64,000 bases of DNA from Escherichia coli (lineage in GTDB: Bacteria; Pseudomonadota; Gammaproteobacteria; Enterobacterales; Enterobacteriaceae), in the NCBI RefSeq assembly GCF_044324785.1, contig NZ_CP172127.1; one strand, written 5' to 3'. This document shows positions 35,788 to 64,000 of this stretch, piece by piece. Each line of letters begins with the position of its first letter. Position 1 is the stretch's first letter. The notes below the pieces were generated by a model. That model searched no databases and was not told the DNA's origin. It worked only from the letters and a program-made list of their open reading frames with translations. The translations under genes were made by a program, and so were the position numbers.

Positions 35788-36483
35788 ATGCTGAAGCGTT
35801 TCTTTATTACCGGTACAGACACTTCTGTAGGGAAAACGGTGGTTTCCCGCGCATTGCTACAAGCGTTAGCCTCCCAGGGAAAAACGGTTGCGGGATATAA
35901 ACCCGTAGCGAAGGGGAGCAAAGAGACACCCGAAGGGCTGCGTAATAAAGATGCCCTGGTGTTGCAGAGTGTTTCAACCATCGAACTGCCTTATGAAGCA
36001 GTTAATCCTATCGCGTTAAGCGAAGAAGAAAGTAGCGTGGCGCACAGTTGCCCAATCAATTACACCCTCATTTCAAACGGCCTGGCAAACCTGACCGATA
36101 AAGTCGATCATGTCGTGGTAGAAGGGACTGGCGGCTGGCGCAGTCTGATGAATGATTTGCGTCCGCTCTCTGAATGGGTGGTGCAGGAACAACTGCCGGT
36201 ATTGATGGTTGTCGGTATTCAGGAAGGTTGCATTAACCATGCACTACTAACAGCTCAGGCGATTGCCAACGACGGGCTGCCGCTCATTGGCTGGGTGGCT
36301 AACCGAATCAATCCAGGACTGGCGCATTATGCGGAAATCATTGATGTGCTGGGTAAAAAACTTCCGGCACCGCTCATTGGTGAACTGCCTTATCTGCCGC
36401 GCGCCGAACAGCGTGAACTGGGGCAATACATCCGCTTAGCTATGCTTCGCAGTGTGCTGGCGGTAGATAGAGTCACGGTGTAA
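35788..36483 (+). CDS. ynfK: dethiobiotin synthetase paralog
   Basis: Start at internal Met [24 protein letters not shown]... giving 231 aa; P-loop. Confidence 0.9.
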
Positions 36484-37692
36484 CGTCCGCGAAATTACCG
36501 ACGCAATTACGCAGGCAATCAATAAACCGGGGAGTAGCTGATACTCCCCGGTCATTTCACATATCATCAACGTCGACATAATCGGCGCGTGCGTGGTTGC
36601 CGCCAACAGTGTCGCCATCCCGGTCAATCCTAGTAAAAGCGTAATTTCTTCCCCGTCAGGGAACCATAATCCCAGGCTACGACCATACAACATGCCAATG
36701 GCAAGACCGATAAATAGTGTCGGTGTAAAGACACCACCGGGCGCGCCAGAACCACTACTCGCCAGCACGGCAAACAGTTTACAGAGGAAGATCCCGGCAA
36801 TGATCATTAACAGTGGCGGGGCGGTTAAAAAGGATTGTACGGTGCTATAGCCGTTGCCCCACACTGCAGGTGTGACCAGGGAAAGCTGACCCACGATTAA
36901 GCCGCCCAGTGCCAGTTGCCAGGGCGGCGCAAGTTTGAGACTTACAAATCCACGATGACAGGCGTTCATTAACGTTAACAACAGTGGTCCGCACAGACCT
37001 GCCAGCACACCTGTACTGATAATCAGCGCATAGTCACGAGCCTGAACCGTCACTGAGAGTTGTACGCTGTAGAGTAACGCGTCGCTATGATTAATCAGAT
37101 TGCTAACCAGCAACGCCACGACGGCGGAAATAATCACCGGGCCGAGAGAGGCCAACATCATAGTGCCAAACAGCACTTCGGCTATAAATAAACTGCCAGC
37201 AAGCGGGGCGCGATAGGCCGCAGCCATTCCCGCCGCAGCTCCACAGGCGATCCATAATTTACACTCCTGGCGTGGCGTAAAACGTTGGGCAAAACAGGAG
37301 GCGGCAAGGGCAGCTAAAAGAATCATCGCACCTTCGCGACCAATTGCACTGCCGCTGGTTACTACCAGCAGCGAGGCAAGGGATTTAACCAGGCTTGCTG
37401 CGTAATCAAACTGCCCATCGGTTTGCAACGCTTCCATGTAATCGGTCGGCGCATGAGGGCGTTGCTGGGTAAATTTCTGCCAGCCCATCAACAACAAACC
37501 CGCCGCCAGTCCGCCGAGCGCCGGAGTTAGCAGCCGTCGCCACGGGGAAAGATTTGTCGCTGCATTGACCAGACTGCCGGAGTCATTATTGAGGAACAAC
37601 CACTCCAGTAGCAGCATTGCATGACGAAACCCGGCAACGGCAAAGGCCGCAAGAATACCGACGACTGTTGCGATAAGCAGACGGCGGAACAT
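36436..37692 (-). CDS. clcB: ClC-family voltage-gated chloride channel
   Basis: Start at internal Met [17 protein letters not shown]... giving 418 aa; 3' end overlaps ynfK convergently. Confidence 0.9.
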
Positions 37693-37886
37693 AGTGCGCA
37701 GATCCGGATAGATGTGTAGATGATGCATGAGCAGAAATGGGCAATGAAACACGGGCGACTATTTTGCGGCAAAAGAGGCCAGCCGCAAAAGCAGTGCGTG
37801 CTTTAAGAGATAAAAAAACGTGACACTGTAACCTATTATTGCCGAATTGCGCGTAATCGTCACCATCCGGCAATAATAAGGTGATC

Positions 37887-38501
37887 CTATCGAAAGAGTG
37901 GTTTAACCGCGACAGGAATTAACAGTTGTGATTGCCATTGCGCCAGCGTTAAGCGAGCCAGTTCACCCAGTGCACGGTAGAAAGGGTGTTCTGCTTTTTC
38001 GATAAAAACGTCAAGAAAACGTGTTGACCACGGAAAAAGGTGCCATGCCAGCAATTCTTCGCATTCTGTCTGGCGACCATTCTCCGCCAACCACGCAGCC
38101 ATCAACAGCAGTGAACCAAAATGATCTTCCGGTTCGTTTTGCTTCATTTCAAACTGAATGCCTTTCTCGCGCATCCACTGACGAAGTGCCAATGTTGAAT
38201 CGCCAAACAGCACAGATTCGCGATCCAGCCAGACCGATCCCCACGGCGGTGACGGCAGTGCCCACGGGCCGACAAACAAACGCTGCCAGGCCTGGGCGTG
38301 AGTCTCTTCACTCTGTGTCTGAAAAGCCGTCACCAGCGGCGCTAATGACGCTTCTGGTAGAGGCCACTGAGTTTCCCAGCCGTCACGGGTGAGTACCGCA
38401 ACCAGGGGGGCGGCTTCCGCACTCTCTGGAGCGTAATAAAACAGCGCGCCCAACACGCGCGCCGCGACAGAAAAATTATCTTGCTGTGAAAAATGGGTCA
38501 T
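37887..38501 (-). CDS. dmsD: Tat proofreading chaperone DmsD
   Basis: Start at internal Met MTHFSQQDNFSVAARVLGALFYYAPESAE... giving 204 aa. Confidence 0.92.
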   Translation of the reverse strand: MTHFSQQDNFSVAARVLGALFYYAPESAEAAPLVAVLTRDGWETQWPLPEASLAPLVTAFQTQSEETHAQAWQRLFVGPWALPSPPWGSVWLDRESVLFGDSTLALRQWMREKGIQFEMKQNEPEDHFGSLLLMAAWLAENGRQTECEELLAWHLFPWSTRFLDVFIEKAEHPFYRALGELARLTLAQWQSQLLIPVAVKPLFR

Positions 38502-38543: not shown

Positions 38544-39398
38544 TTAACCTGCAATAGCCATTCCTACCGTCATGTGCAGGCCATAAAAGAGCACACGCCC
38601 GATCATCTCACCGCCAAGTATGAGGATTAGCCCCAGAACAAGTCCGGCAACGTGAGGTTCACGGCGACGAATGAGCGGACAAAGCCAGCATCCTAGACCT
38701 GCGCATAACAATACCACACGCCAGACCTGTAAGGAGGCGTAATCTGGTACCAGTGCGCTGGCTTGTTGTACGGATGAGTGAATAGACGCCAGAGACAAAC
38801 CTTGCAGCACAATCACCCCGGCACAAGCGATCAGCGCCAGAACGCTAATGATGGCAAATGGTGTGGTATTAAATGTAACGCGGGCTGCCCGCAGAATTGC
38901 GGCAGCAAGTATTGGACCACTCAATAATACTGTCAGGAAGAAAGCCAGCGTAGTGTAACCGTTATGCCAGGTTGGCACAGTGTCGATTTGATACACGCCG
39001 GTCATCATCCAGACGAAAATGACGCCGAGCGCCATGCTGACAAGTAACCAGAGTTTCCCCAACGCTTGCGGCATTTTACCGATGACCGCCACCAGCCACC
39101 ATAATCCGCCAACGGCAAAAAATATTGAACCGGCAGCAATCTCGTTACTCAGACCAGAAGCACCGATTCGATTCAGCGAGTTAAACGCTCGCAGTGGCGA
39201 TCCCAGGTGCATGACAGAGGCAATAAACCCGATGCCCATCAACAGCCAGAGGAAAAACATGCCACGAACAATGTGCTGACGGTCTGCGTCATTTTTGGCG
39301 GCGAACCAGCCAATTCCGCTAACAATCAGCGCGCCTACTACGCATTGACCCAATACGGTAAAGATAACCAGTGGCCATTCATGCCATCCATTTCCAAT
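38544..39398 (-). CDS. ynfH: DmsC-like membrane anchor subunit; homology-supported N-terminus begins at an ATT codon
   Basis: 284 codons counted from the codon encoding I in ...KCKIGNGWHEWPLVIF...; this ATT lies 1 nt after the ynfG stop; no in-frame ATG/GTG/TTG in the preceding 18 codons. Confidence 0.8.
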   Translation of the reverse strand: MGNGWHEWPLVIFTVLGQCVVGALIVSGIGWFAAKNDADRQHIVRGMFFLWLLMGIGFIASVMHLGSPLRAFNSLNRIGASGLSNEIAAGSIFFAVGGLWWLVAVIGKMPQALGKLWLLVSMALGVIFVWMMTGVYQIDTVPTWHNGYTTLAFFLTVLLSGPILAAAILRAARVTFNTTPFAIISVLALIACAGVIVLQGLSLASIHSSVQQASALVPDYASLQVWRVVLLCAGLGCWLCPLIRRREPHVAGLVLGLILILGGEMIGRVLFYGLHMTVGMAIAG

Positions 39399-39399
39399 T

Positions 39400-40017
39400 T
39401 TACACTTCCTCCGGATTAGCCAGATAACCAGTGGTATCGCCGGTCGGGCGGCTGTTGGCGTTAGGTTTGATAACGATATTGGGTTTTGTGAAATGCGCGC
39501 GCGGCAGTGGCGCGACGGCAGCCAGAGTGCCGTACTTCTGGCGCAGCTCTTCAATTGGACCGAACTCAAGTGCACGCAGCGGGCAGGATTCGACACATAT
39601 GGGTTGTTTCCCCTCGGCGACGCGCGAATAACAACCATCGCACTTCGTCATGTGCCCTTTTTCAGCATTGTACTGTGGCGCGCCGTACGGACAAGCCATG
39701 TGGCAGTAGCGGCAGCCGATACAAACATCTTCATCAACCACCACAAAGCCATCTTCACGCTTATGCATTGCGCCGCTGGGGCAGACTTTTGTACATGCGG
39801 GGTCATCGCAATGGTTACAGGAGATGGAGAGATAATAAGCGAACACGTTCTGGTGCCAGACGCCATTATCTTCCTGCCAGTCGCCGCCAGCATATTCATA
39901 AATACGGCGGAAACTGACTTCCGGGCCAAGATCTTTAAAATCTTTGCACGCCAGTTCGCAGGTTTTACAGCCAGTACAGCGGCTGGAATCGATAAAAAAT
40001 CCATATTGTGTGGTCAT
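39400..40017 (-). CDS. ynfG: 4Fe-4S ferredoxin subunit (DmsB paralog)
   Basis: ORF 205 aa with four Cys clusters (CTGCKTCELAC, CIGCRYCHMACP). Confidence 0.93.
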   Translation of the reverse strand: MTTQYGFFIDSSRCTGCKTCELACKDFKDLGPEVSFRRIYEYAGGDWQEDNGVWHQNVFAYYLSISCNHCDDPACTKVCPSGAMHKREDGFVVVDEDVCIGCRYCHMACPYGAPQYNAEKGHMTKCDGCYSRVAEGKQPICVESCPLRALEFGPIEELRQKYGTLAAVAPLPRAHFTKPNIVIKPNANSRPTGDTTGYLANPEEV

Positions 40018-40027
40018 GGGCTACTCC

Positions 40028-42451
40028 TTAAACCTTTTCGATCTGGACAAGATTGCTGTGCGACGGGTTTCCCTTTGCCAGCGGTGAAGGGCGGTGAGAG
40101 GTCAGAATATTAATACTGCCGCCGTGATCGACCCGGTCACCAAACATATCCGCTTTAAGCCACGCACCTTGCCCGATGGCGGTAACGCCAGGCAGAATAC
40201 GCGGAGTCACTTTTGCGGCAATCAGCATTTCTCCATTATTGTTAAATACCCGCACGGTATCGCCATGACGGATACCGCGTGCCTGAGCATCAATAGGGTT
40301 GATCCACACCTCTTGTGGGCAGGCCTGCTGTAACACATCAATATTGCCGTAGCTGGAGTGGGTACGCGCTTTGTAGTGGAAGCCCGTTAACTGCAGTGGA
40401 TAGGTTTTCCGCAGGGGATCGTCCCAGCCATCAAAACCTGGGGTATACGCAGGAAGGGGATGAATAATTTCATCTTTTTTCAATTCCCAGGTATCCGCAA
40501 TCGTCGCCAGTCGTTCAGAATAAATTTCGATTTTCCCCGAAGGTGTTTTCAACGGGTTTGCCTGTGGATCTTCACGGAATGCGCGGAAAGCGACGTAGTG
40601 TTCTTCCGGGCATTTTTTCTTAAAGATCCCGGTCGTTTTCATCTCCTCGTAGTCGGGCATCTCAGGGTTACGTTCCTTCGTTTTCGCATGGAGATATTTG
40701 ATCCATTCGTGCTGACTGCGGTCTTCAGTAAAGGTTTGATAAACGTCTGGTCCTAAGCGTTTGGCGACTTCGCTCAGCATCCAGTAGATGGGTTTGCGTT
40801 CAAATTTTGCTGAGGTTGCGGGTTGGGCGAGGATCACATAGCCCATATTCCCGGCAGATTCGTGAGAGATAAGGTCTTCTTGCTCTGTTGGCATCAGGTC
40901 GGGCAACAGGATATCGCAATACTTAGCCGAGGCAGTCATGAAGTGGTCAATGCCAACAATCATCTCGCACTTGCTGTCATCCTGAAGCACCTCATGGGTG
41001 TGATTGATGTCGCCATGTTGATTGATCAATGTGTTACTGGCGTAGCACCATAAAAACTTGATGGGGACATCCAGTTTTTCTTTTCCACGAACACCATCAC
41101 GGGTCGCGGTCATTTCCGTACCGTGGTCGATGGCATCTGTCCATGTAAAGACGGAAATCTGCGTTTTAACAGGATTCTCGAGCATCGGGAACCATTCTAC
41201 CCCCAGATCCCAGCTACCTTCGCGTACACCTGAGTTGCCGCCGTTTATGCCGACGTTACCGGTGAGAACGGAAAGCATGGCAATAGCGCGGGACGTTTGC
41301 TCGCCGTTGGAGTGTCGTTGTGGCCCCCAACCCTGACAAATATAAGCAGGTTTTGCTGAACCGATCTCTCGTGCCAACTGGATAATTTTTTCTGCCGGTA
41401 TGCTGGTGATTTTTGCTGCCCATTCCGGCGTTTTAGCTATGCCGTCAGGCCCTTCGCCCAGAATATAGGCTTTATAATGCGCGTTACGTGGTGCGTTGGC
41501 GGGCAGCGTTTTTTCATCGTAACCAACACAATATTTGTCGAGAAATGGCTGATCGACCATGTTTTCAGTAATCAGTACCCAGGCAATCGCACAGGCCAGT
41601 GCGCCATCGGTGCCTGGGCGAATTGGCAGCCATTCATCTTCACGCCCGGCAGCAGTGTCGTTATAACGTGGATCGATGACGATCATGCGTGCGTTTGAAC
41701 GTTCTCGGGCTTGCTCGACGTAGTAAGTGACACCACCGCCGCTCATCCGGGTTTCTGCCGGGTTATTTCCGAACATAACGACCAGTTTCGTATTGGCGAT
41801 ATCATCCGGGCTGTTGCCATCATTGGCACCGAACATATAACTCATTGCGGCACTGATCTGTGCGGTACTGTAGCTACCATAGCGACTGAGAAAACCACCG
41901 CAAGAGTTCATCAGACGGTACGGGACGTTTGAGTTGGTGATGTTTCCGCCATCTACGCCTGTTCCGTACAGGACATGTACAGCCTCATTGCCGTAATCTT
42001 TTAGGATCCGCCGAAGATTATCACTGATGGTATCCAGGGCTTCGTCCCAACTTATCCGTTCAAATTTACCTTCACCGCGCTTGCCGACGCGCTTCATGGG
42101 ATATTTCAGCCGATCAGGATGATTCATCCGTCGGCGGATAGAGCGCCCGCGTAAACACGCCCGAACCTGATGATTACCGTAAACGTCGTCACCTGTCGTA
42201 TCAGACTCCACCCAGTACACAGTGTCATCTTTCACATGCAAACGTAACAGACAGCGGCTCCCGCAGTTAACGGTGCAGGAACTCCAGACCGCTTTCTCTT
42301 CTACCGGTGCCTCTGCCGCTCGGACCATTTGGGAAAATGGCAGAGTGAAAGCACTGCTTGCCAGCGCGAGACTGCCAAGTGCGGAGGTTTTCATCAGACT
42401 TCTACGGCTGATTTCAGCCTTCATGAGCGCCTCTGTGGTATGGAATTTCAT
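40028..42451 (-). CDS. ynfF: Tat-exported molybdopterin oxidoreductase (DmsA paralog)
   Basis: ORF of 808 aa with twin-arginine signal SRRSLMK; start placed at second Met giving 807 aa. Confidence 0.9.
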   Translation of the reverse strand: MKFHTTEALMKAEISRRSLMKTSALGSLALASSAFTLPFSQMVRAAEAPVEEKAVWSSCTVNCGSRCLLRLHVKDDTVYWVESDTTGDDVYGNHQVRACLRGRSIRRRMNHPDRLKYPMKRVGKRGEGKFERISWDEALDTISDNLRRILKDYGNEAVHVLYGTGVDGGNITNSNVPYRLMNSCGGFLSRYGSYSTAQISAAMSYMFGANDGNSPDDIANTKLVVMFGNNPAETRMSGGGVTYYVEQARERSNARMIVIDPRYNDTAAGREDEWLPIRPGTDGALACAIAWVLITENMVDQPFLDKYCVGYDEKTLPANAPRNAHYKAYILGEGPDGIAKTPEWAAKITSIPAEKIIQLAREIGSAKPAYICQGWGPQRHSNGEQTSRAIAMLSVLTGNVGINGGNSGVREGSWDLGVEWFPMLENPVKTQISVFTWTDAIDHGTEMTATRDGVRGKEKLDVPIKFLWCYASNTLINQHGDINHTHEVLQDDSKCEMIVGIDHFMTASAKYCDILLPDLMPTEQEDLISHESAGNMGYVILAQPATSAKFERKPIYWMLSEVAKRLGPDVYQTFTEDRSQHEWIKYLHAKTKERNPEMPDYEEMKTTGIFKKKCPEEHYVAFRAFREDPQANPLKTPSGKIEIYSERLATIADTWELKKDEIIHPLPAYTPGFDGWDDPLRKTYPLQLTGFHYKARTHSSYGNIDVLQQACPQEVWINPIDAQARGIRHGDTVRVFNNNGEMLIAAKVTPRILPGVTAIGQGAWLKADMFGDRVDHGGSINILTSHRPSPLAKGNPSHSNLVQIEKV

Positions 42452-42511: not shown

Positions 42512-44938
42512 TTATATTTTTTCGATCTCGACCAGATTAGTGTGCTGCGGGTTTCCCTTCGCCAGTGGTGAAGGGCGCAGAGTGGTTAGCGTATTCACAC
42601 AGCCGCCGTGGTCGATTTTATCGCCAGACATATTGGCCTCGTGCCAGGCTCCCTGACCCATAGCGCTAACTCCAGGAAGAATGCGTGGTGTCACTTTGGC
42701 TGGTAGCCGAACTTCGCCACGATGGTTAAACACCCGCACCATATCGCCGTTGGCAATCCCACGTTTCTGTGCATCTATAGGGTTGATCCACACTTCCTGA
42801 CGGCAGGCTGCCTTCAGGACATCAATGTTGCCGTAGGTCGAGTGAGTACGGGATTTGTAATGGAAACCAAACAGTTGCAGTGGGAAGGTACTACGTTCAG
42901 GGGAGTCCCAGCCTTCAAAGGTTGAGGCATAAACCGGCAGTGGGCTTATCACTTCATCTTTTTCCAGTTCCCAGGTACGGGCAATTTCCGCCAGCTTGCT
43001 GGAATAAATTTCAATCTTACCGGAAGGCGTTTTAAGTGGATTTGCCTCGGGGTCGTCACGAAATGCTTTGTAGGCGACAAAATGACCATTGGGATCTTTA
43101 CGCTTATAGATACCCATTTTTTTCAGTTCGTCGTAAGACGGTAACGCCGGATCTTTGGCAAGCATTTTGGCGTACAGATGTTGTAACCATTGTTCCTGCG
43201 TGCGACCTTCAGTGAACTTTTGATAGACGTCAGGTCCAAGACGTTTCGCGACTTCACTCAGGATCCAGTAAATCGGTTTGCGTTCGAATTTTTCGCTGGT
43301 GACAGGCTGGAGGAAAATGAGATATCCCATGTTACCGGTGTAGTCGTTAGGAATAATATCTTCCTGCTCAACGGTCATCAGGTCTGGCAGCAGAATGTCG
43401 GCATATTTTGCCGATGAGGTCATAAAGTTTTCGATGACCACAATCATTTCGCATTTCGATTCGTCCTGCAGAATTTCATGCGTTTTGTTGATGTCAGAAT
43501 GCTGATTAACCAGGGTATTTCCCGCGTAGTTCCAGATGAACTTAATGGGCACATCCAGTTTATCTTTGCCCCGGACGCCGTCGCGGATTGCCGTCATTTG
43601 CGGGCCATGATCGATAGCATCCGTCCAGCTGAAGCAGGAGATTGACGTTTTGACCGGATTATCAAGCACCGGCAGGCGTTCTATGGTAATGGTATAGGTC
43701 GATTCACGCGCGCCACTATTCCCGCCGCTGATGCCGACATTGCCCGTCAGAATAGGCAACATCGCAATAGCGCGTGCAGTCAGCTCGCCGTTTGCCTGGC
43801 GTTGCGGTCCCCAGCCCTGGCAGATATAAGCGGGTTTTGCTGTGCCAATTTCACGCGCCAGTTTGATGATACGGTCCACCGGGATACCGGTAATTTGCGA
43901 AGCCCACTGCGGCGTTTTCGCTGTTTTATCGTCACCTTCACCAAGAATATAGGCTTTATAGTGACCATTTTTTGGTGCATCTGCGGGTAAGGTTTTTTCG
44001 TCATAGCCGACGCAGTATTTATCGAGAAAAGGTTGATCAACGAGATTTTCGTTAATCAATACCCAGGCAATACCCGCAACCAGCGCGGCATCGGTGCCCG
44101 GGCGAATAGGAAGCCATTCGTCTTCACGACCGGCAGCCGTATCGGTATATCGCGGATCGATAACAATCATTTTTGCGTTCGATTTCTCGCGCGCTTTTTC
44201 AAGAAGATAAGTGATGCCACCGCCGCTCATGCGGGTTTCTGCCGGGTTGTTACCAAACATCACGACCAGCTTGCTGTTTTCAATATCCGTGGTGCTGTTG
44301 CCATCATTACTGCCGTAGGTGTAGGGCATGGCACAGGAAATTTGCGCGGTGCTGTAGGAGCCATACTGATTGAGTGAACCGCCGTAGCAGTTCATCAGGC
44401 GTTTGACCGCCGAGGCTGATGGTGAAGAGCGGGTCATATTGCCGCCAACAATCCCCGAAGAGTACTGAATATATACAGCCTCATTGCCATATTGTTCGAC
44501 GGTTTTTTTCAGGCTACTGGCGATAGTATCCAGGGCTTCATCCCAGCTAATCCGTTCGAATTTGCCTTCGCCGCGTTTGCCCACGCGTTTCATTGGGTAA
44601 TTCAAGCGATCGGGATGATTAATACGCCGACGGATGGAGCGACCGCGCAAACAGGCACGTACTTGATGATTGCCATACTCGTCGTTGCCGGTGTTGTCAG
44701 TTTCCACCCAGGTCACTTCATTATCTTTAACATGCAGACGAAGTGCACAGCGGCTACCACAGTTGACGGAACAGGCACCCCAGACCACTTTCTCGCTGGC
44801 CTGTTGTACCGCTGCCGCTGCACTGCGCAGGGTGAACGGTAAAGAAAAACCGCCTGCAGCCAGCGCCAGAGAACCTATCGCGGTAGATTTAACGAGTGTT
44901 CTGCGGCTGATGCCCACCATTTGTTCATTTTTGGACAT
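42512..44938 (-). CDS. ynfE: Tat-exported molybdopterin oxidoreductase (DmsA paralog)
   Basis: ORF 808 aa with twin-arginine signal SRRTLVK; long collinear similarity to ynfF. Confidence 0.92.
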   Translation of the reverse strand: MSKNEQMVGISRRTLVKSTAIGSLALAAGGFSLPFTLRSAAAAVQQASEKVVWGACSVNCGSRCALRLHVKDNEVTWVETDNTGNDEYGNHQVRACLRGRSIRRRINHPDRLNYPMKRVGKRGEGKFERISWDEALDTIASSLKKTVEQYGNEAVYIQYSSGIVGGNMTRSSPSASAVKRLMNCYGGSLNQYGSYSTAQISCAMPYTYGSNDGNSTTDIENSKLVVMFGNNPAETRMSGGGITYLLEKAREKSNAKMIVIDPRYTDTAAGREDEWLPIRPGTDAALVAGIAWVLINENLVDQPFLDKYCVGYDEKTLPADAPKNGHYKAYILGEGDDKTAKTPQWASQITGIPVDRIIKLAREIGTAKPAYICQGWGPQRQANGELTARAIAMLPILTGNVGISGGNSGARESTYTITIERLPVLDNPVKTSISCFSWTDAIDHGPQMTAIRDGVRGKDKLDVPIKFIWNYAGNTLVNQHSDINKTHEILQDESKCEMIVVIENFMTSSAKYADILLPDLMTVEQEDIIPNDYTGNMGYLIFLQPVTSEKFERKPIYWILSEVAKRLGPDVYQKFTEGRTQEQWLQHLYAKMLAKDPALPSYDELKKMGIYKRKDPNGHFVAYKAFRDDPEANPLKTPSGKIEIYSSKLAEIARTWELEKDEVISPLPVYASTFEGWDSPERSTFPLQLFGFHYKSRTHSTYGNIDVLKAACRQEVWINPIDAQKRGIANGDMVRVFNHRGEVRLPAKVTPRILPGVSAMGQGAWHEANMSGDKIDHGGCVNTLTTLRPSPLAKGNPQHTNLVEIEKI

Positions 44939-50298: not shown

Positions 50299-51594
50299 TT
50301 AATTTTTCATTGCTTCGTTATGGGGCATGGTTGGGGCAAACTCGCTTAACTGTGTATTTAACAAAGCTACCTGTGCATTATTGTTTTCAGACATCCATTT
50401 TCCGTATACCTGAAATACCATTTGCGCATCTGCATGGCCCATCTGGTTTGCTATAAATGCCGGATTAGCACCAGCTGTCAGCGACCAGCAGGCATAAGTA
50501 TGTCTCGACTGATATGATTTTCGATGGCGGAGTCCGGCACGTTTTATCGCTGCGTCCCACATCTGCCTTATTGAGTCAACGGTAAAATGGTCACCATAAT
50601 TTTTTACTCTCGCTGACACTTCAGGTTGAAAAACAAAGGTGCATTTATGTTTTTCTGTTCTGCCATACTCTCTGAGGTGAACATCAATGATATGCTCTTT
50701 GCTCAGTCTCGTTAATGTCATCTGACTCCGGAGAGCGTCGATTGCTGGCTTAATAAGATGAATGACCCGATTGGTTCCCGCCTGTGTTTTTGGTACCGTG
50801 AAACGGTCTTTTGCTAAATTTCTCCTGATCATCATTGTTCCATTTTTCAGATCTATGTCCTCCCATCCAAGTGCACACAGCTCACCAGGGCGAACGCCAG
50901 TATAAACAGAAACACACCATAAATTTTTGGCTTGCTGATTTCTGCACGCATCGATAAGACGGATGAATTCCTCCCGCGAAAGAGGATCCGGAATGGTTCT
51001 TGATTCCTTTAATGGCGAGATCCCCTTAAACGGGTTATCTGCCAGGTAACCGTTATCAACACCAAACTGGAACACGGCGTTAAGATTTGTCATGTAATTA
51101 TTTACAGTTACAGCCGATCTCCCTGGTTGTGTAACAATATAGTTACTTTTGGGGATCTGGTATCCAGTCAGTAGCTCTTTACGAACCTCCAGTAATTTTT
51201 CTTTATTAATCGATGAGGCAAGATTTTTTTCACCGATTATGCTCAGGATATTTTTGATGACGGCACGGTATGTGTTGAGTGATGTTTTTGCGACTTCAGT
51301 TTCTTTCAGTGCCAGAAATTTTTCAGCCAGTTCTTTTATGGTTAAATCTTGTCGAGTCTCACCAAATTTTTCCAGATTGCGTGAGGAGGGAAACTGTTTT
51401 GCATAGTCGAAAACACCAGTTTTTATTGCGTAACAAACAGAGGCGCGTAGCTCACCTGCAACGCGCCTGTTTTTTGCTGTGTCAGGAACCCCCAGGTTTT
51501 CCCTGACTCTTACGCCTTTATAAACAAACCAGATACGTAATTTCCCTCCATGGTTTTCCACGCCTGTCGGATATTTCATTTCAACTTCTCTCAT
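50299..51594 (-). CDS. int: prophage tyrosine-recombinase integrase
   Basis: ORF 431 aa with C-terminal catalytic region (…SRHTYACWSLTAGANPAFIANQMGHADAQMVFQVYGKWM); true start may be the Met 5 codons in (51579). Confidence 0.85.
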   Translation of the reverse strand: MREVEMKYPTGVENHGGKLRIWFVYKGVRVRENLGVPDTAKNRRVAGELRASVCYAIKTGVFDYAKQFPSSRNLEKFGETRQDLTIKELAEKFLALKETEVAKTSLNTYRAVIKNILSIIGEKNLASSINKEKLLEVRKELLTGYQIPKSNYIVTQPGRSAVTVNNYMTNLNAVFQFGVDNGYLADNPFKGISPLKESRTIPDPLSREEFIRLIDACRNQQAKNLWCVSVYTGVRPGELCALGWEDIDLKNGTMMIRRNLAKDRFTVPKTQAGTNRVIHLIKPAIDALRSQMTLTRLSKEHIIDVHLREYGRTEKHKCTFVFQPEVSARVKNYGDHFTVDSIRQMWDAAIKRAGLRHRKSYQSRHTYACWSLTAGANPAFIANQMGHADAQMVFQVYGKWMSENNNAQVALLNTQLSEFAPTMPHNEAMKN

Positions 51595-51613
51595 TAGTTA
51601 GTGTGGCTTTTAG

Positions 51614-51865
51614 TCAAGTAAGATGACGTCTTGGTCTTGCTGATGCCTGGCGCTCAATCCAGCGATCAATTTCTTCCAGGTTGTAAAAGCATGGACTGTT
51701 ATCCCATGGCATACCGTCATGAGCGACATGCTTATATTCCCTTCCTTCCATAAACGATTTTTCCCGGGCCTTTTTTAACGTACCTTTTTTTATTCCTTTC
51801 AGCGCAATTAACTGCTCTTCGGATACCCATTTGCCGGGAGAGACAATCATGATTACTTCGCTCAT
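51614..51865 (-). CDS. xis: putative excisionase-like small protein
   Basis: 83-aa ORF immediately upstream of and co-oriented with int; assignment by position and size. Confidence 0.55.
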   Translation of the reverse strand: MSEVIMIVSPGKWVSEEQLIALKGIKKGTLKKAREKSFMEGREYKHVAHDGMPWDNSPCFYNLEEIDRWIERQASARPRRHLT

Positions 51866-51937
51866 CGATTTCTTTATCTCTTACATCAGACGAGCGCCGG
51901 TTGCAGAATACCAGTCACAACCGGCGACAGTTGAACA

Positions 51938-54411
51938 TTAAGAATCAGCCTGACTCGGGATCAGTTTTTGCCAGATAACTGAAACGTATTTTGCCTGGTA
52001 ACGGGCGTCATCAAGTGCATTATGGCGCTCACCTTCGAATGGAATAGCCGTTCTGGCATCGAAGTCTATGGCTTTCCCCAGCTCAACGATTGTGCGTACA
52101 TCGCGATCGTTGTAGTAACGCCACGGGCAGGGGATCCCCTGCCGTTCGTATGAACGGCGCAAAATCGTGTTGTCGAAGTTGGCTCCATTTCCCCAAACCT
52201 GAACAAAAAATTCACCGGAGTTTTCGTCGATAAATTCCCGCAATTGTAACAGTGCATCATCTAACGGGATTTCATCGGTCATAATGGCCGATTGCGCTTC
52301 GCGTGATTGCTCTTAAGCCACCATTTAATGGTGTCCCGATCAATGACTCCGCCAGCAGTTTCCAGATCGATAGTCTTACTAAATTCCGGTCCCATATCTC
52401 CGGTTTGCGGATCGAAAAATATTGCACCTATTGAGATGATCGGGGCATCAGGATTTTTTCCCATGGTTTCAAGGTCGATCATTAGATGGTCACACGTCCT
52501 GCTGGTGGATGTGATTTCGTGATGACCGTTCACCTTAATTGAGTGATCTGCCGTCTCGCCAGTTTCATTATCGCTATCGTGATGCTGATTGCCGCCAGCG
52601 TTCTCCTTGTGTGGATGTTCAGCGCCTTCCATTTCCTCCGGATCATCTTCCTGAACTTCAACCTGATACTCTTCATCGAATGTTTCTTGGTATGTTGCGT
52701 CGCCCATCACCGCGCCACAATCAGGGCAGTTGCCGCCGCCGGTCTGACCGCAAGCGGTGCAGACTTTTTCCACTTCCTGTTGCGCCACTGATTCAGGCTG
52801 TTTCGTTTCTGGCTCGTTTTGTAACGCATTTGGGCTGTTTTGTTCCGCTTTTTGGTAGTTCCGTTCCGATTCATGCTGGTTCTGGTTCACAGAATCGCGG
52901 GTCTGGATCCCCTTAACCCATTTCGGATCATTCGGGTCACTAATCCCTTCAACAAATTCACCACGTGATGCAGCAAGCAACTTATCGGCGTCAGGCTGGC
53001 TGATATTGGCTGCCTGCATAATTTTGTTTACTTCGTCAGCGGTAACTTTTATCGGCTCTGGTTGTTCTGAATCTTCAGCGGTATCTACATTTTGCGGTAA
53101 GCCCGTGTATGTGCCATTTTTTCGGGCAAAATATTCTTCTTTTGTGATTTCAGTGGCGCCAGCAGCCAGTGCCTTATCCAGACCAGAAAGTTTGTTTGCG
53201 CGACCGTATTTTTCTCCGTCCTTATCTGCGAAGAGGAAATAGAACGGCCCCTCACGCTCTACAGATGGTTCAGCTTCCGGTGCGGTTTCATTTTTTGGGA
53301 TATCAGATACCTCAGTTTCCACTGCATCAGTTTGTGTTTCTGATGACTTGAGAACATCAACAGTGCCCAGGTCTGTTTCTTCATTCTCAAACACGCCCTT
53401 TGTCGTCAGGTATTCGCAGATATATTTGTTCAGTGCTACGGGATCTTTGTGAATGTCGATCGGACGCTCACGGACAAGGCCAAAAATAGTTTGGCGGTCG
53501 TAGCGAAGGGCATCAGGCTGTTTGCGTATTGATGCCGAGATACGCTTCCAGTCTTCGCGGTCGTTGTCGATAACTTCATTTTTTGCCCAGCGATGGATGC
53601 TGCCGTCAATGTTTCCGGCATCCACATCACCAGGCCAGAGAGCGTAGGCCAGTTCGTCATCCAGTGTTTTCCATGTCTGCTTGTATTCGCGATGAATGGC
53701 AGCAATGACCGGGCTGATTTTTCCTGTTGAATTTTCAGTGTACTGTTGATTGGCTCTGGCGCGGGCGAGATCAACAACAGACGTGTATTTTCCGGTTTCC
53801 TTGCGTTCACCTTCGCGACGTTTTTTCCAGATGCGCATCTCTGCCTGAATTTCGGGCCATTTAGCACCAGGAATACATTTATGCTTAACCCACCCAATGG
53901 CGTGCAACTTAAGCTCCGGATACATGGCGTTAACTTCTGGCATTTTCATCAACGCTTCAACGATATGTCCGTTGAATGTTGCCATGTCTTCCTGCAACAA
54001 TTCCTGTGCGCTAATAACCATATCAACGGTGATGTTTTCACATGTGTCGAACTTAACCATGACAGCGTTCTGTACTTCAGGGGCCAGCTTGTCAAAAGTG
54101 ACGTTCATCGGATCGGATTCAGTCTCAACCGGGACAAAAGAAGCAGACTCCTCATCCCAGCGGTTTTCCTGCATATATTCAGCATCCCATGAATCGAGGG
54201 CAGGGCGGGGTATACCAGGTTTATCCTCGCAGACAATAAATTTATAAGCGCAGTCCTGAGCAGCCGGATAATGTTCCAGGAATTGCCAGTGAAATTTTGC
54301 TCGAGCACGGCGTTCGTCGCCAGCTTCAATGGCTGTGGCTACAGCCACAGCGCCTTCTTCCCTTGTTGCCAGTTCGTCAGGAATAGCGGCGCAAATAAAG
54401 ACTTTACTCAT
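51938..54411 (-). pseudogene. RecE-family (exodeoxyribonuclease VIII-like) gene with C-terminal DEDDh exonuclease domain, split by a frameshift
   Basis: ORFs 52279..54411 (710 aa) and 51938..52282 (114 aa) overlap by ATGA; Exo I motif (HLMIDLETMG) is in the upstream ORF, Exo II/III (FGNGANFDNT, HNALDDARYQAKY) in the downstream ORF; frames differ by 2 nt around 52310-52311. Confidence 0.75.
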
Positions 54412-54534
54412 TTTGTTTTAACCTCATGACAGATTTAAGGATGAACAAATCCCTGCCATTGCTGGCATATAAGAATGAAACCGGATATTTATTACGGAAC
54501 TGTTTTAAAGACCTGCCGGGATTTCGATATTATC

Positions 54535-54696
54535 CTAGTGAATAACTTTATCGACCGGGTAACAGTTACCGGGAATTTTCTGTTCGGTTGCTGCAGTCAT
54601 ACACTCCTGCATTGTCCTGTGAACACTGACTGCAATATCAACTGGCACTCCGGAAACAAGAAAAACTGTCAGAACAAGCGCAAATGCTGAATTCAT
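54535..54696 (-). CDS. ydfD: small membrane protein, YdfD-like (prophage lysis protein family)
   Basis: 53-aa product MNSAFALVLTVFLVSGVPVDIAVSVHRTMQECM...; ATG overlaps dicB stop (ATGA); assignment by position and partial recall. Confidence 0.6.
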   Translation of the reverse strand: MNSAFALVLTVFLVSGVPVDIAVSVHRTMQECMTAATEQKIPGNCYPVDKVIH

Positions 54697-54881
54697 TGTG
54701 CACATCCTTTTGGCATCAGACGTAAACGAGCCAGCATTGAAACAATGCATATTTTATTTAATAGCTCCCGTTCTTGTTTTCTCTTGTTAATGGCATCTTC
54801 AGTAAATACAGGGTTACTGATAGTGACACCAATTTCAAAACAACCTTCAGACGTATTAACGTTTGGTAATAACGTTTTCAT
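54693..54881 (-). CDS. dicB: cell division inhibitor DicB
   Basis: 62-aa product MKTLLPNVNTSEGCFEIGVTISNPVFTEDAINKRKQERELLNKICIVSMLARLRLMPKGCAQ, recognised DicB. Confidence 0.9.
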   Translation of the reverse strand: MKTLLPNVNTSEGCFEIGVTISNPVFTEDAINKRKQERELLNKICIVSMLARLRLMPKGCAQ

Positions 54882-55055
54882 TATCGCGCCCTCAACAATG
54901 AGTTTTGTGATGCGGTGCCTGGTGCCTCCAGGTGACGTTAACCAGTTAACAATTAACGCCGGATACAGAGAATCCACCCATAACACTGTTTTTGGTTTTA
55001 ACTGTTCCGCGTGCGCTCAGCCGCATTCACCACATCACAAAATTCACTTTAAAAA

Positions 55056-55108
55056 GGGCGGCAGAGCAGTCACGGAGTAAAACTGATACCGCCAAACGTC
55101 ACCAGAAA
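55056..55108 (-). ncRNA. dicF: DicF small regulatory RNA
   Basis: Minus strand reads TTTCTGGTGACGTTTGGCGGTATCAGTTTTACTCCGTGACTGCTCTGCCGCCC followed by TTTTT; recognised DicF with 3' GC hairpin. Confidence 0.88.
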
Positions 55109-55448
55109 ATTGATAACAGAGGGCGTTGCAGCGGGGTTGTCACTTAAGCGTATGGTCAACCTGACAACCCGGTGTCCTCAACGGGGAAGGAATAACCCCG
55201 CCATACTTACCGCCGCGCCATTTCGCGGGTTGCCACAACCGGAAGCGCACGGTCGACGAAAATTTAACGACAGGCTATCTATGAACCAGCTACCTCGCCG
55301 TGCGCTTTCGCGTTATGGTCTGACTTTTCAGGGAAATATCCTTTCAGTAAACTGTCAGTGCCGGATGCTCACCCGTGTCCGGCGCACGCACTCCACCTCA
55401 CCCGTGGAGAACTCCTTAATTACCAACCTTAGCTTCGTTGGTTAGCTA

Positions 55449-55667
55449 TTAACGCGGGTATGTAATCATTCTGGCAATGCTTAATGCCGCTGCTTTTTCC
55501 AGATTGGTGATATCCTGCTCCAGAGAGAACAGATTTTCAGCCTGCTTAGCCCTGGCTTCATTAGCCCATTTCAGATCCTGCGCTGCATTAATTTTCTGGT
55601 GCATCCACTCATAAAGTTCATCATCGGTATAGTCTGGCGCGATGATAACGGGTTCTCGTTTCTGCAT
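55449..55667 (-). CDS. ydfC: prophage small protein, YdfC-like
   Basis: 72-aa ORF between ydfB and dicF; assigned by size and position in the dicB operon. Confidence 0.6.
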   Translation of the reverse strand: MQKREPVIIAPDYTDDELYEWMHQKINAAQDLKWANEARAKQAENLFSLEQDITNLEKAAALSIARMITYPR

Positions 55668-55697
55668 ACTGATTCCTTGCGGTGCTGTTTCGCTTAT

Positions 55698-55826
55698 CAG
55701 CCGTTAGATTTTGCCGAACTGGAAAGCGCCTGTTTAAATTCGCTGAAGCTGAGAGCTTCTTCGCCTTCGGCAAGGCCTTCGAAGTATTCTTCGTAAGCCT
55801 TTTCCATGATTGTGTCGAAATCCATA
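55698..55826 (-). CDS. ydfB: prophage small protein YdfB
   Basis: Not in ORF track (42 aa): MDFDTIMEKAYEEYFEGLAEGEEALSFSEFKQALSSSAKSNG; starts right after ydfA stop. Confidence 0.7.
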
Positions 55827-55982
55827 TCACCCACCTGAATTTCTTTCCAGCCAGCGACGCGCTCCAGATTCGGTTTTAAACGTTTTGCTTTTGGTATACG
55901 TCATTGCGGTGAACGTGCCGTCCTGGTTTGGAAACACGCCGTACACCAGAGATTCGTTGTTGCCAAGATCGATAGTATCCAT
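55827..55982 (-). CDS. ydfA: prophage small protein YdfA (DUF1391)
   Basis: Start at internal Met MDTIDLGNNESLVYGVFPNQDGTFTAMTYTK... giving 51 aa; first gene after dicA. Confidence 0.75.
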   Translation of the reverse strand: MDTIDLGNNESLVYGVFPNQDGTFTAMTYTKSKTFKTESGARRWLERNSGG

Positions 55983-56095
55983 GCTGACCTCATTTCCCCT
56001 TAACGCCGGGGTAGCGGAACTGTTTGCTGAGAACACCGTGCGGTGTCTTGATGGAAAATAATTTAGAATAACCTAACATGAGAGGCAAGTGTTTT

Positions 56096-56113
56096 TGTTA
56101 GATTGATCTAACA
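56096..56113. promoter_or_regulatory. Operator-like palindrome TGTTAG-N6-CTAACA in the dicB-operon promoter region
   Basis: TGTTAGATTGATCTAACA with flanking T5/A5, between dicA stop and ydfA start. Confidence 0.6.
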
Positions 56114-56149
56114 AAAAGGGTGGGCGCAACTAATCACTTGAAAAGAATG

Positions 56150-56557
56150 TTATTTTATTGATTTATTTTTACGCGCTTTAAGCATTTCTTCGAAGAGTTT
56201 GTTGAAGTTTTCTACTCTTGCGCGCATTTCAGACAGCAAGGCTTCCTGCTCGGAAGATGGAAGAGCATCGAATAATTCGATCAATTCTTTGTGGTTGGGA
56301 GTTAGCTCTGTTTCCACATGAAGTTCTTGTGCAGGCACTGGTGCCTTGTCTTCGTCACCAAACATTAGCCATGTAGGTGAGCACTTCAGAGCATCCGCTA
56401 AAGCAAACAATCGTTTTCCGACTGGCTGGGTTTCGTCTCTTTCCCATTGTGAAATTGTGACGTGAGCAACTCCAGCGAGGCGCGCGGCTTCTCGTTGTGT
56501 TAAGCGTAATTCTTTTCGTCGCGCCAGAACTCGCTGGCCCAGGGTTCTTGTATCCAT
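56150..56557 (-). CDS. dicA: HTH-XRE repressor, DicA-like (cI-type)
   Basis: 135-aa ORF with N-terminal HTH (LRLTQREAARLAGVAHVTISQWERD); same length and architecture as DicA but diverged from the K-12 sequence as I recall it. Confidence 0.8.
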   Translation of the reverse strand: MDTRTLGQRVLARRKELRLTQREAARLAGVAHVTISQWERDETQPVGKRLFALADALKCSPTWLMFGDEDKAPVPAQELHVETELTPNHKELIELFDALPSSEQEALLSEMRARVENFNKLFEEMLKARKNKSIK

Positions 56558-56579
56558 AGTTAGGTAATTCTAATTTTTC

Positions 56580-56624
56580 TTGACTTAGGTATCCCGCGCA
56601 CAATAATGTTAGAAAAGTCTAACA
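56580..56624 (+). promoter_or_regulatory. Putative dicC promoter (-35 TTGACT, 16-17 bp, -10 AATAAT) overlapped by operator TGTTAG-N6-CTAACA
   Basis: Hexamers and the palindrome TGTTAGAAAAGTCTAACA at 56607-56624 read directly; a weaker third site GTTAG-N6-CTAAT at 56559-56576 overlaps dicA start. Confidence 0.55.
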
Positions 56625-56634
56625 AGAGGGGGAT

Positions 56635-56865
56635 TTGATGCTTAAAGTTGACGCAATTACTTTTTTTGGCAGCAAAACAAAGCTTGCCAATGCCGCAGGA
56701 GTGAGGCTGGCAAGTGTTGCTGCTTGGGGGATACTGGTTCCTGAAGGTCGCGCGATGCGTCTACAGGAGGCATCTGGCGGGGAGCTTCAGTATGATCCCA
56801 AAGTTTATGATGAATATCGTAAGACGAAGCGGGCGGGGCGGTTGAACAATGAAAATCACTCCTGA
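56635..56865 (+). CDS. dicC: Cro-like regulator DicC
   Basis: 76-aa ORF divergent from dicA (MMLKVDAITFFGSKTKLANAAGVRLASVAAWG...). Confidence 0.75.
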   Translation: MMLKVDAITFFGSKTKLANAAGVRLASVAAWGILVPEGRAMRLQEASGGELQYDPKVYDEYRKTKRAGRLNNENHS

Positions 56866-57370
56866 ACAGGCTCGTGAGGCTCTGGATGCCTGGATATGTC
56901 GACCAGGAATGACACAGGAGCAGGCGACGATATTAATCACTGAAGCATTCTGGGCTTTGAAAGAGCGCCCGAACATCGATGTTCAGCGTGTCACAGATGA
57001 AGGTGGCGCGGTTGATCAGCGAGCGCTTGGTGTTAATCGAGTGAAGATATTCGAACGCTGGAAGGCTATCGACACCAGGGATAAGCGTGAAAAGTTCACG
57101 GCGCTAGTGCCTGCGATTATGGAGGCTATCCGGATTAGTGATTTCAGGTTGTATCGTGAAATTACTGACGGAAAAAGCATCACGTGCATGATCGCCGGGT
57201 TAAACAAAGAATATGGCGATGTGGTGGAGTCCGGACTGCTTTTTGCTGATCCTGCCGTAGTGGATCGTGAAACTGACGAACTTATAGAAAAAGCAATTGC
57301 TTTCAAGCTTGCGTATCGACAGCAATACCAACAAAAAGCTGGATGGAATTATGAGCCTTCTTTTTGCTGA
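56849..57370 (+). CDS. hypothetical prophage protein at the cII-equivalent position (possibly YdaT-like)
   Basis: 173-aa ORF whose ATG overlaps the dicC 3' end; no recognisable motifs. Confidence 0.5.
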   Translation: MKITPEQAREALDAWICRPGMTQEQATILITEAFWALKERPNIDVQRVTDEGGAVDQRALGVNRVKIFERWKAIDTRDKREKFTALVPAIMEAIRISDFRLYREITDGKSITCMIAGLNKEYGDVVESGLLFADPAVVDRETDELIEKAIAFKLAYRQQYQQKAGWNYEPSFC

Positions 57371-58316
57371 ACGCCCACTGGTTATAAACACGCAGCTGGC
57401 AATGAAAATTGGCTTAAACGAAGCCATTGTTTTGCAACAACTGCACTACTGGTTGAGAGATACCAACTCCGGCATGGAATGTGATGGTGTTCGCTGGATT
57501 TATAACACAACGGAACAATGGCTGGAACAGTTCCCATTCTGGTCAGAGTCAACGTTAAAGCGCGCGTTTGCAAGTCTGAAAACGCTGGGGCTTTTGCGTT
57601 GTGAAAAGCTCAATAAATCAAAGCGCGATATGACCAATTTCTACACGATCAACTATGGGAGCGAGCTTTTAGATGGTGGCAAATTGAGCGAATCCATCGG
57701 TTCAAAATGCGCCGCTCCATCAGGTCAAAATGACACGATGGAAGAGGTCAAAATGAAACGCTCCATTGATTCAAAACGACCCAATGTCATCGGGTCAAAA
57801 TGGCCTGATGATCTTACAGAGAATACAACAGAGATTACTACAGAGAATAAAAACACTTTTCGTCCGGAAGCTTCGCAACCGGACCCGCAGACGACTGAAC
57901 AGGATTTTTTAACCCGGAACTCCGACGCGGTTGTGTTTAGTGCGAAAAAACGCCAGTGGGGTAGCAGGGAGGATTTGGCGTGTGCGCAGTGGATCTGGGG
58001 GCGGATCGTGGGTCTCTACGAACAGGCAGCCAGTGATGATGGCGAGATCATGCGACCAAAAGAGCCTAACTGGACTGCCTGGGCCAATGACGTGCGCACA
58101 ATGCGGATGCTGGATGGCAGAAGCCACAGACAAATTTGCGAAATGTTTGGTCGGGTTCAGCGAGATCCATTCTGGGTAAAAAACATCATGAGCCCGTCAA
58201 AGCTCCGCGAAAAATGGGACGAACTGGTCATCCGCCTGGGACGTTCACCTGTACAGCGTTGTGTTAATCATATTTCTGAACCGGATACAGAAATTCCGCC
58301 TGGTTTCAGAGGATAA
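57351..58316 (+). CDS. phage replication initiation / replisome organizer protein (lambda O-like) containing the origin iterons
   Basis: ORF track frame 57297..58316; likely start at MSLLFAERPLVINTQLAMKIGLNEAIVLQQLHYWL...; iterons and AT-rich tract lie inside the coding sequence. Confidence 0.7.
   Translation: MSLLFAERPLVINTQLAMKIGLNEAIVLQQLHYWLRDTNSGMECDGVRWIYNTTEQWLEQFPFWSESTLKRAFASLKTLGLLRCEKLNKSKRDMTNFYTINYGSELLDGGKLSESIGSKCAAPSGQNDTMEEVKMKRSIDSKRPNVIGSKWPDDLTENTTEITTENKNTFRPEASQPDPQTTEQDFLTRNSDAVVFSAKKRQWGSREDLACAQWIWGRIVGLYEQAASDDGEIMRPKEPNWTAWANDVRTMRMLDGRSHRQICEMFGRVQRDPFWVKNIMSPSKLREKWDELVIRLGRSPVQRCVNHISEPDTEIPPGFRG
57699..57802 (+). repeat. Replication origin iterons: five direct repeats of GGT(T)CAAAATG at 22-25 bp spacing, followed by AT-rich tract 57810-57855
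   Basis: Repeats at 57699, 57723, 57746, 57768 and 57793, then ACAGAGAATACAACAGAGATTACTACAGAGAATAAAAACACTTTT. Confidence 0.7.
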
Positions 58317-58356
58317 GTGTTGATTTCAGGTCATGAGGTAATTTTAAGGGGGACTT

Positions 58357-58779
58357 GTGGCAAAAGTTTTTACACAAGAAGAGCGGGAAAAAATTAAATG
58401 GCAGGTGGTGGAACTCGTGCGCCAGAGCGGCCGTGAGACGTTACGGCAACTGGAAGCTAAAACAGGTGCGACTAGATATCTGATGAGCGTTCTTGCCAGA
58501 GAGCTGGTAGCCAGTGGCGATGTATACAACTCCGGCTACGGGTTATTCCCCTCTGAACAGGCGCGTAAGGACTGGCAAAACGCCCGCAAAAAACTCTCGA
58601 GGGCAAAGGTGAAGAAACCTGCTGTGGTTGATCCGGACCTTATCTGGTCATCACCTGACGGAGAAATACGTCGCTACGACAGTCGCCTAAACATAATCTG
58701 TCGCGAGTGCCGGAAGAGCGAAGTTATGCAGCGCATACTGGCTTTCTATCAGGGTAATTTTCAGGACGTGGCGCAGTGA
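58357..58779 (+). CDS. hypothetical prophage protein
   Basis: 140-aa ORF, basic, Cys pair CRECRK near C-terminus; no family recognised. Confidence 0.5.
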   Translation: MAKVFTQEEREKIKWQVVELVRQSGRETLRQLEAKTGATRYLMSVLARELVASGDVYNSGYGLFPSEQARKDWQNARKKLSRAKVKKPAVVDPDLIWSSPDGEIRRYDSRLNIICRECRKSEVMQRILAFYQGNFQDVAQ

Positions 58780-59222
58780 GTGCACCGGCAACCATTCTTG
58801 ATATGTGCTGTGGCAGCCGCATGTTCTGGTTCGATAAGTCTGACGAACGGGCGATATTTAGCGATATCAGAAAAGAAGGATACACATTACGCAATGGGAG
58901 ACGCTTGATTATCAGCCCTGACATTATCGCAGATTTTCGTGCATTATCATTTGCAGACGCATCTTTTTCGATGGTTGTATTAGACCCTCCGCATCTTGAG
59001 CGTGTTGGTGATAACGCCTGGATGGGAAAGAAATATGGACGGCTGAATAAAGATGCCTGGCGTGATGATTTGCGACAGAGATTTAAAGAAGCTTTTCGGG
59101 TGTTGAGGCCGCACGGCGTTCTGATTTTTTAATGGAATGAAACGCAAATACCGGTAAGCCAGATTCTGGCACTGACAGATAGAAAGCCTGTTATCTGTCA
59201 ACGAACAGGGAAAAAACGATAA
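58776..59222 (+). pseudogene. putative SAM-dependent DNA methyltransferase interrupted by an in-frame TAA
   Basis: Motifs ILDMCCGSR and VVLDPPH; TAA at 59130-59132 after ...VLIF, then 29 more in-frame codons (WNETQIPVSQILALTDRKPVICQRTGKKR) before a second stop. Confidence 0.5.
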
Positions 59223-59394
59223 AACCCACTGGATTATTTTTATGAAAGAGGCATCCAGTGAGTAGATTCGTAAGGTTACAGATACGTATATCTGAATAAT
59301 TAAATTCAGTTCTGTAAATAAAACTTAATCCTTAACCGGATGGATTTCTGCACCCTCAGAACATCAGGAGGCCGCCCGAAAGGGCGGTAGTGAA

Positions 59395-60030: not shown

Positions 60031-60284
60031 ATTAATGGGTTAACTATGTCGGTTAAACGACCAGCCAACTGAAAAAGCGGAAACCTGATTACAGGTTGCC
60101 AGATAAGGCAATGAGCTACCTGGCGCGGAACGGACTGATAAGTATGGGGAATGTTTTACGATGAACCTTTAGACTAAAGAGTTTGTAACGCTATGTAAGT
60201 GATTTTTTCTGGTTTAGATATTTATATGTCCGGCCAAATTGAGGTGTGTTTAAATGTAATTGCACATTGATTGTAGGAGGAATA

Positions 60285-62821: not shown

Positions 62822-62830
62822 CCTACAGGC

Positions 62831-63601: not shown

Positions 63602-63628
63602 GGCGAAAAGTGGCCCGATGAGGGCCAC
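63602..63628 (-). terminator. Rho-independent terminator after flxA
   Basis: GTGGCCC-tcatc-GGGCCAC hairpin followed by TTTTCGCC on the minus strand. Confidence 0.7.
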
Positions 63629-63642
63629 AATACGGCTGTCAC

Positions 63643-63975: not shown

Positions 63976-64000
63976 AGATTTCTCCTTTTAAAAAAGCACT

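Follow-up and report, generated by a model that had tools for sequence, protein, structure and literature searches.

In the 64,000-nt stretch of Escherichia coli DNA analyzed here (the window), the ynfH gene begins with ATT, very probably because a single recent G-to-T change at position 39396 removed the conserved ATG in one small clone of the species, making this an ordinary strain-specific start loss. The position is the true start of ynfH, and ATG is ancestral and invariant elsewhere. The gene and its mechanism are already known; only the allele is new. In the selenate reductase encoded by ynfEFGH-dmsD, YnfH is predicted to serve as the membrane anchor that oxidises quinol and connects YnfG and YnfE/F with the quinone pool (PMC5203670; PMC12724226). 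ATT at this codon is a single-base state, and the relevant comparison is with other genomes rather than the usual test against chance.

The ynfH reading frame, which encodes a DmsC-family membrane anchor, occupies positions 38544 to 39398 on the minus strand and has 284 codons plus a stop, without an internal stop or frameshift. Translation of 39398 to 38544 gives 284 sense codons, an N-terminus of IGNGWHEWPL, and a stop at 38546-38544 (the frame from ATT translates as IGNGWHEWPLVIFTVLGQ...), in agreement with a sequence-only reading of this DNA that had taken ATT (39398-39396, minus strand) as codon 1 of a 284-codon frame. The conserved N-terminus of YnfH thus begins in the window on a noncanonical codon, whose third position, 39396, is the variant base: T here and G (ATG) in all other genomes compared. 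Immediately upstream lies ynfG (39400 to 40017, minus strand), encoding the 205-aa 4Fe-4S subunit. Its TAA stop (39402-39400) is separated from the ynfH start codon by a single A at 39399 on the same strand, so the succession of ynfG stop, one base, and ATT had been read correctly. The minus-strand junction in the window is GCT AAT CCG GAG GAA GTG TAA A ATT GGA AAT GGA TGG CAT GAA TGG CCA CTG. A Shine-Dalgarno sequence, GGAGG (39408 to 39412, minus strand), falls within the last ynfG codons, 9 nt before the start codon. This is the geometry of a coupled pair, with the ribosome-binding sequence of the downstream gene inside the upstream one and stop, single base, and start in direct succession.

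Candidate starts (in-frame ATG, GTG, and TTG plus near-cognate codons) were listed from the upstream stop at 39650 through ynfH codon 80. The in-frame codon listing has no ATG, GTG, or TTG over the 51 codons 5' of ATT, as had been said of the preceding codons, and the nearest canonical in-frame start on that side is a TTG at 39554, which lies 52 codons away, well within ynfG and in another frame. On the 3' side, the first canonical in-frame start is a TTG at codon 16 (39351 to 39353, minus strand), which automatic gene callers use to produce a protein of 269 aa; the second is an ATG at codon 47 (39260-39258). Three further ATGs lie out of frame on the minus strand within 20 nt 3' of ATT, at 39391-39389, 39387-39385, and 39382-39380, and open frames of only 17, 2, and 17 codons, respectively; all three also occur in the ATG allele, the annotated comparison genomes having the same bases. 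The sequence-only reading had the nearby ATGs out of frame, which they are, but counted two of them.

Translation from a shifted start, either TTG16 or an in-frame TTG, GTG, or ATG within ynfG that would add 52 to 80 residues, would yield an altered protein, and we regard this as very unlikely. TTG16 is the first canonical in-frame start and the one that automatic annotation chooses, and the ynfH frame is open for 83 codons upstream of ATT. Against this, the 20 nt before TTG16 (CACTGGTTATCTTTACCGTA) contain no purine-rich Shine-Dalgarno sequence, and a start there drops residues 1 to 15, including the MG(N/S)GWHEW motif and the start of the first hydrophobic segment (residues ~8 to 30; transmembrane helix 1); the hydropathy maximum of YnfH falls in the 19-residue windows that start at residues 8 to 12. 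The upstream candidates sit in ynfG, out of its frame, and none of the annotations examined places a ynfH start there. No canonical ynfH start was plausibly missed, given that the upstream candidates are at least 52 codons inside ynfG and TTG16 is without a Shine-Dalgarno sequence. The suggestion that a mis-set start might be hiding something else at the site falls away: the start position is correct, and nothing else is hidden there.

Comparison with other E. coli genomes leads to the same codon. In the curated annotation of K-12 MG1655, ynfH starts with ATG at exactly the codon that is ATT in the window, 1 nt past the ynfG stop, and the PGAP annotations of three unrelated strains and of the best-matching strain use the same codon, ATG each time. 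The start site had thus been placed correctly from the sequence, and the rest of the frame is intact. For the population test, 33-mers centred on the variant base were compared with 5,426 complete E. coli genomes by megablast with a 28-base exact word; because of this word length, any 33-mer match contains the central base. The ATG 33-mer matched in 5,315 of the 5,426 genomes (5,245 of them exactly), and the ATT 33-mer had 0 matches among the complete E. coli genomes, even at E = 10. The ynfH locus is detectable in 5,328 of these genomes, leaving ~13 locus-bearing genomes unscored by the 33-mer test. An ATT 57-mer found no exact match in the complete E. coli genomes, an exact search with a 25-mer across the ATT junction found none in one genome per GTDB species, and a 25-mer made degenerate at the start codon (ATH, covering ATT, ATA, and ATC) found none in the JGI metagenomes.

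The window itself is ordinary E. coli chromosome (uidA ... pntAB ... ynfEFGH-dmsD ... rspAB, then prophage), collinear with complete genomes at identities of up to 98.9%. None of the 5,426 complete genomes is nearer to it than ~98.9% over 25-kb stretches, so that the lineage of the window seems to be without a close relative among them; draft assemblies identical to the window, or 1 to 2 nt different, over 6.6 kb do occur. Near-identical contigs of this kind were sought through a less common residue of YnfG, Tyr162. This tyrosine (39532-39534, minus strand) stands where the commonest E. coli protein, WP_000213028.1, has histidine; it is found in many ATG-bearing genomes (464 index blocks) and is therefore unrelated to the ynfH ATT.

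ATT proved to be present in GCA_958304815.1, which matches the window at every one of 6,618 nt, and in SRR31073010 (Logan assembly) and ERZ21846171 (ENA SPAdes contig), both also 100% identical to it; the window-identical stretches in the three data sets span 2.9 to 6.8 kb. The assembly GCA_020811775.1 has ATG, and its single mismatch to the window in 6,618 nt is the ynfH start base; a further contig (L007) shows two differences from the window. The exact 269-aa gene call of the ATT allele was found on 21 contigs (12 in the cluster table), those of SRR31073010 and ERZ21846171 among them, and the same YnfH protein haplotype with Met1 on 339 contigs.

The ATT is real and clonally inherited. That the T at 39396 is a sequencing or assembly error, with ATG as the true sequence, might be thought from its being a single base off a common haplotype and from the absence of ATT in complete genomes and JGI metagenomes, but this is highly improbable: ATT recurs in at least three separate data sets from different archives and assemblers (NCBI GCA, Logan of an SRA run, and ENA SPAdes) that are otherwise 100% identical to the window, the 269-aa gene call that it provokes is recorded on 12 to 21 contigs, and the sequence context is not of the homopolymer-length type. 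The contig comparisons likewise indicate that the G-to-T change at 39396 is recent and private to a small E. coli clone, because, over 6.6 kb, nothing else separates the window from a common ATG haplotype.

Beyond E. coli, a YnfH protein search with one genome per species gave 80 loci across Enterobacterales (in Escherichia, Citrobacter, Pseudocitrobacter, Kluyvera, Klebsiella, Raoultella, Kosakonia, Leclercia, Buttiauxella, Cedecea, Siccibacter, Mangrovibacter, Serratia, Rahnella, and others). Position 1 of ynfH is ATG in all 80 species representatives and ATT in none. A one-base gap separates the stop of the upstream Fe-S subunit gene from the ATG in 75 of 77 scorable junctions, GGAGG (rarely GGAGA) stands ~9 nt before the ATG in essentially all 80, and the N-terminal motif MG(N/S)GWHEW is kept in nearly all 80 species. 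Of the six peptide patterns by which the loci were retrieved, one, MGNGWHEW, itself demands an ATG and introduces a slight sampling bias; 28 of the 80 loci start with MGSGW, MGMGW, or MGTGW and were hence retrieved by other patterns, and all 28 have ATG. Prokaryotic AUG start codons are under purifying selection (PMC5622118), which normally clears start-codon substitutions such as this one.

The same layout is found in a paralogue. Comparison with the dmsB-dmsC junction, which the sequence-only reading had proposed, shows in K-12 the geometry of ynfG-ynfH with an ATG start (AAGGAGGTG TGA G ATG GGA AGT GGA TGG CAT GAA TGG). Both K-12 ynfG-ynfH (b1589/b1590) and dmsB-dmsC (b0895/b0896) share with the window the gene order, the GGAGG, the stop, one base, start layout, and the MG(N/S)GWHEW N-terminus; the window differs from both in having ATT in place of ATG, one base changed. 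The ynfG-ynfH junction belongs to a conserved type of Fe-S subunit/anchor junction, common to ynfGH and dmsBC and apparently coupled. As for the proposal that ATT initiation is coupled to ynfG, the junction architecture is real and conserved (75/77 species and dmsB-dmsC), but ATT is not its designed start.

These comparisons also bear on whether ynfH might be a genuinely evolved AUU gene like infC or pcnB, with ATT serving low or IF3-regulated expression through coupling to ynfG. The placement would suit such a gene, ATT being exactly at the start, 1 nt past the ynfG stop and 9 nt past GGAGG, and AUU can initiate in E. coli (10.1101/063800; PMC5499595). However, ATT is found neither in the 5,315 complete E. 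coli genomes nor in any of the 80 species, the haplotype identical except at the ynfH start base has ATG, and genuine AUU starts such as that of infC are conserved across species (PMC5499595), which the ynfH ATT is not. We give this reading almost no credence, and as a conserved feature an evolved AUU start of ynfH is already refuted by the sequence comparisons. The view that ATT is the normal way in which ynfH starts had been staked on orthologues having no conserved in-frame ATG; they do have one (5,315 E. coli genomes, 80/80 species, and K-12), and it is the very codon that is ATT here.

Two E. coli genes, infC and pcnB, have experimentally confirmed AUU starts. With them, ynfH in the window shares an AUU in start position behind a Shine-Dalgarno sequence, and this AUU, if used, would be read by fMet-tRNA and would be IF3-sensitive. 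A conserved noncanonical start, the mark of the infC/pcnB type, is found at ynfH in none of the 5,315 E. coli genomes and none of the 80 species; the AUU (or AUC) of infC is kept throughout bacteria and underlies autoregulation (PMC5499595), whereas the ynfH ATT occurs in one clone, replaces an invariant ATG, and has no regulatory logic behind it that would tie IF3 to selenate respiration. The ynfH ATT belongs with start-codon-loss alleles, or incipient pseudogenes, in which a single substitution removes the conserved AUG of an accessory respiratory gene. From these, ynfH differs in having no second lesion yet and in a favourable coupling context that may leave appreciable residual expression: the conserved start is lost, and further degenerative lesions are absent.

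The state of the gene and its surroundings agrees with a start loss of this kind. Compared with the best complete genome, ynfH has 13 nucleotide and 6 amino acid differences and the same length. Among the five ynfH alleles compared, codon 1 is the only difference unique to the window, each of the other amino acid states occurring in at least one ATG allele. A second lesion (frameshift or stop) was sought in the window ynfH and not found, and the ATT contigs are identical to the window; the lack of secondary decay is as expected for a young mutation. The family PF04976 (DmsC) is recorded both for the 284-aa product of the ATG allele and for the 269-aa call of the ATT allele. The operon is also complete. 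The catalytic-subunit genes ynfE (42512-44938) and ynfF (40028-42451), both on the minus strand, are intact, as is the last gene, dmsD (37887 to 38501, minus strand), which encodes the Tat proofreading chaperone, lies 42 nt 3' of ynfH, and has an ATG start. All five genes of the ynfE-ynfF-ynfG-ynfH-dmsD order are thus present and intact, and the region is collinear with annotated E. coli for 25 kb. Set against the best complete genome, none of the 27 genes in the surrounding 25 kb has changed in length, frame, or start, apart from the start of ynfH. Shigella-like decay or a poor assembly is ruled out by the 98.9% identity over 25 kb, the 27 intact genes, and differences that are mostly synonymous.

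What the allele does is a matter of how well AUU initiates at this junction. Under the start-loss explanation, ribosomes would still load at the strong GGAGG de novo or would arrive by terminating at the ynfG UAA 1 nt upstream; the pairing of fMet-tRNA with AUU would be discriminated against by IF3; and synthesis of YnfH, its sequence normal (fMet-Gly-Asn...), would fall to a small fraction of the wild-type rate. As is known from infC, a product started at AUU would carry fMet and hence be identical to the wild type. For the quinol-oxidising anchor of the YnfEFGH selenate reductase in the membrane, the allele would then be hypomorphic to near-null, and the loss would probably be tolerated, since there is a DmsC paralogue and the reductase can be dispensed with under some conditions. 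A hypomorphic to near-null allele is thus the most likely outcome, and some leaky initiation with fMet at AUU, favoured by the Shine-Dalgarno sequence and by coupling to ynfG, may persist as a residual rather than an evolved mechanism.

Reporters with AUU reach 1 to 2% of AUG in vivo (10.1101/063800), and AUU mRNAs in cell extracts reach 28 to 74% of AUG, varying with medium and growth phase, and added IF3 represses them more than any other class (PMC5499595). Residual YnfH from the ATT allele could lie at any level between practically none and tens of percent. Because the allele is too young for secondary decay, its sequence alone cannot separate a tolerated hypomorph from a dead gene. Re-initiation needs formylated initiator tRNA and is lowered by IF3 overexpression (PMC2268962), and coupling therefore would not bypass codon discrimination. 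Folding of the 83 nt around the ynfH start gave nearly equal energies for the two alleles (-24.3 versus -23.5 kcal/mol) and an equally open Shine-Dalgarno sequence (0.81 in both), with the start codon somewhat more paired in the ATT allele (0.08 versus 0.43 unpaired); the predicted effect of the change through mRNA structure is minor at most.

At one end of this range lies efficient translation of the ATT allele, on the grounds that a ribosome that terminates on the ynfG UAA is then 1 nt away from the AUU, which a strong Shine-Dalgarno sequence precedes. We consider this improbable. If true, it would be a natural case of termination-reinitiation rescuing a near-cognate start, and ynfH would become a third AUU-initiated gene of E. 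coli, its output now IF3-sensitive.

At the other end, the allele could be a complete null with no useful YnfH, in which case the 855-nt untranslated stretch might also cut dmsD expression by Rho-dependent polarity and impair the Ynf reductase and possibly the maturation of DmsA. We regard this as possible, though less likely than not. It would fit the in vivo AUU rate, the nearby ATGs that open merely 2- and 17-codon out-of-frame ORFs, and the C-rich, G-poor 78-nt windows at ynfH nt 417 to 690. It would also fit the position of dmsD 42 nt downstream with no convincing promoter-like site directly before it, the nearest 9/12 match being ~400 nt up inside ynfH; a scan for an internal dmsD promoter or a ynfH terminator gave weak consensus matches only, promoters at about the rate of shuffled sequence. 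The operon is, moreover, lost in other strains, for example by the ISEc52-associated deletion of ynfF-ynfG in strain 2EC1. On the other side, near-cognate initiation has its most favourable context where a strong Shine-Dalgarno sequence is combined with a start next to a stop, AUU mRNAs reach 28 to 74% of AUG in extracts (PMC5499595), and polarity on dmsD is pure inference.

The allele matters mainly for annotation. Genomes of the ATT clone will show ynfH either as a 269-aa protein from a spurious TTG start or as a pseudogene, and neither the truncated call nor the pseudogene reflects unusual gene biology. Since the normal start is ATG as annotated, the ATT allele tells nothing new about normal ynfH expression. 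It does offer a clean natural case for gauging how far a stop-adjacent, Shine-Dalgarno-driven junction rescues AUU on the chromosome.

Several minor observations concern the surroundings of the operon. In E. coli 2EC1 (NZ_CP047571.1), an ISEc52 with a frameshifted transposase, at 633-2513 of the locus, replaces the 3' part of ynfE together with ynfF and ynfG; the match to the window picks up again at the Shine-Dalgarno sequence of ynfH (~39411), leaving ynfH and dmsD intact and their operon partners gone. The deletion illustrates the natural dispensability of the operon. Over the 25 kb compared with the best complete genome, there is one intergenic 1-nt indel, a T missing at 32050/32051 between a small KPN_01571-family ORF and ynfM, next to the ynfM stop. 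The clcB gene (36436-37752, minus strand) and the convergent bioD-like ynfK overlap at their 3' ends by ~48 nt, as annotated in the matching genome (9438-9485 of its locus, L004). The program-made ORF for clcB starts at a GTG and has 438 aa, 8 codons beyond the PGAP call of 430 aa, and the curated K-12 protein has 418 aa. Next to rspB, at ~50300 to 64000 of the window, lies a lambdoid prophage (integrase, excisionase, exonuclease ...), which finds only piecewise matches to other genomes, with IS elements annotated in those genomes.
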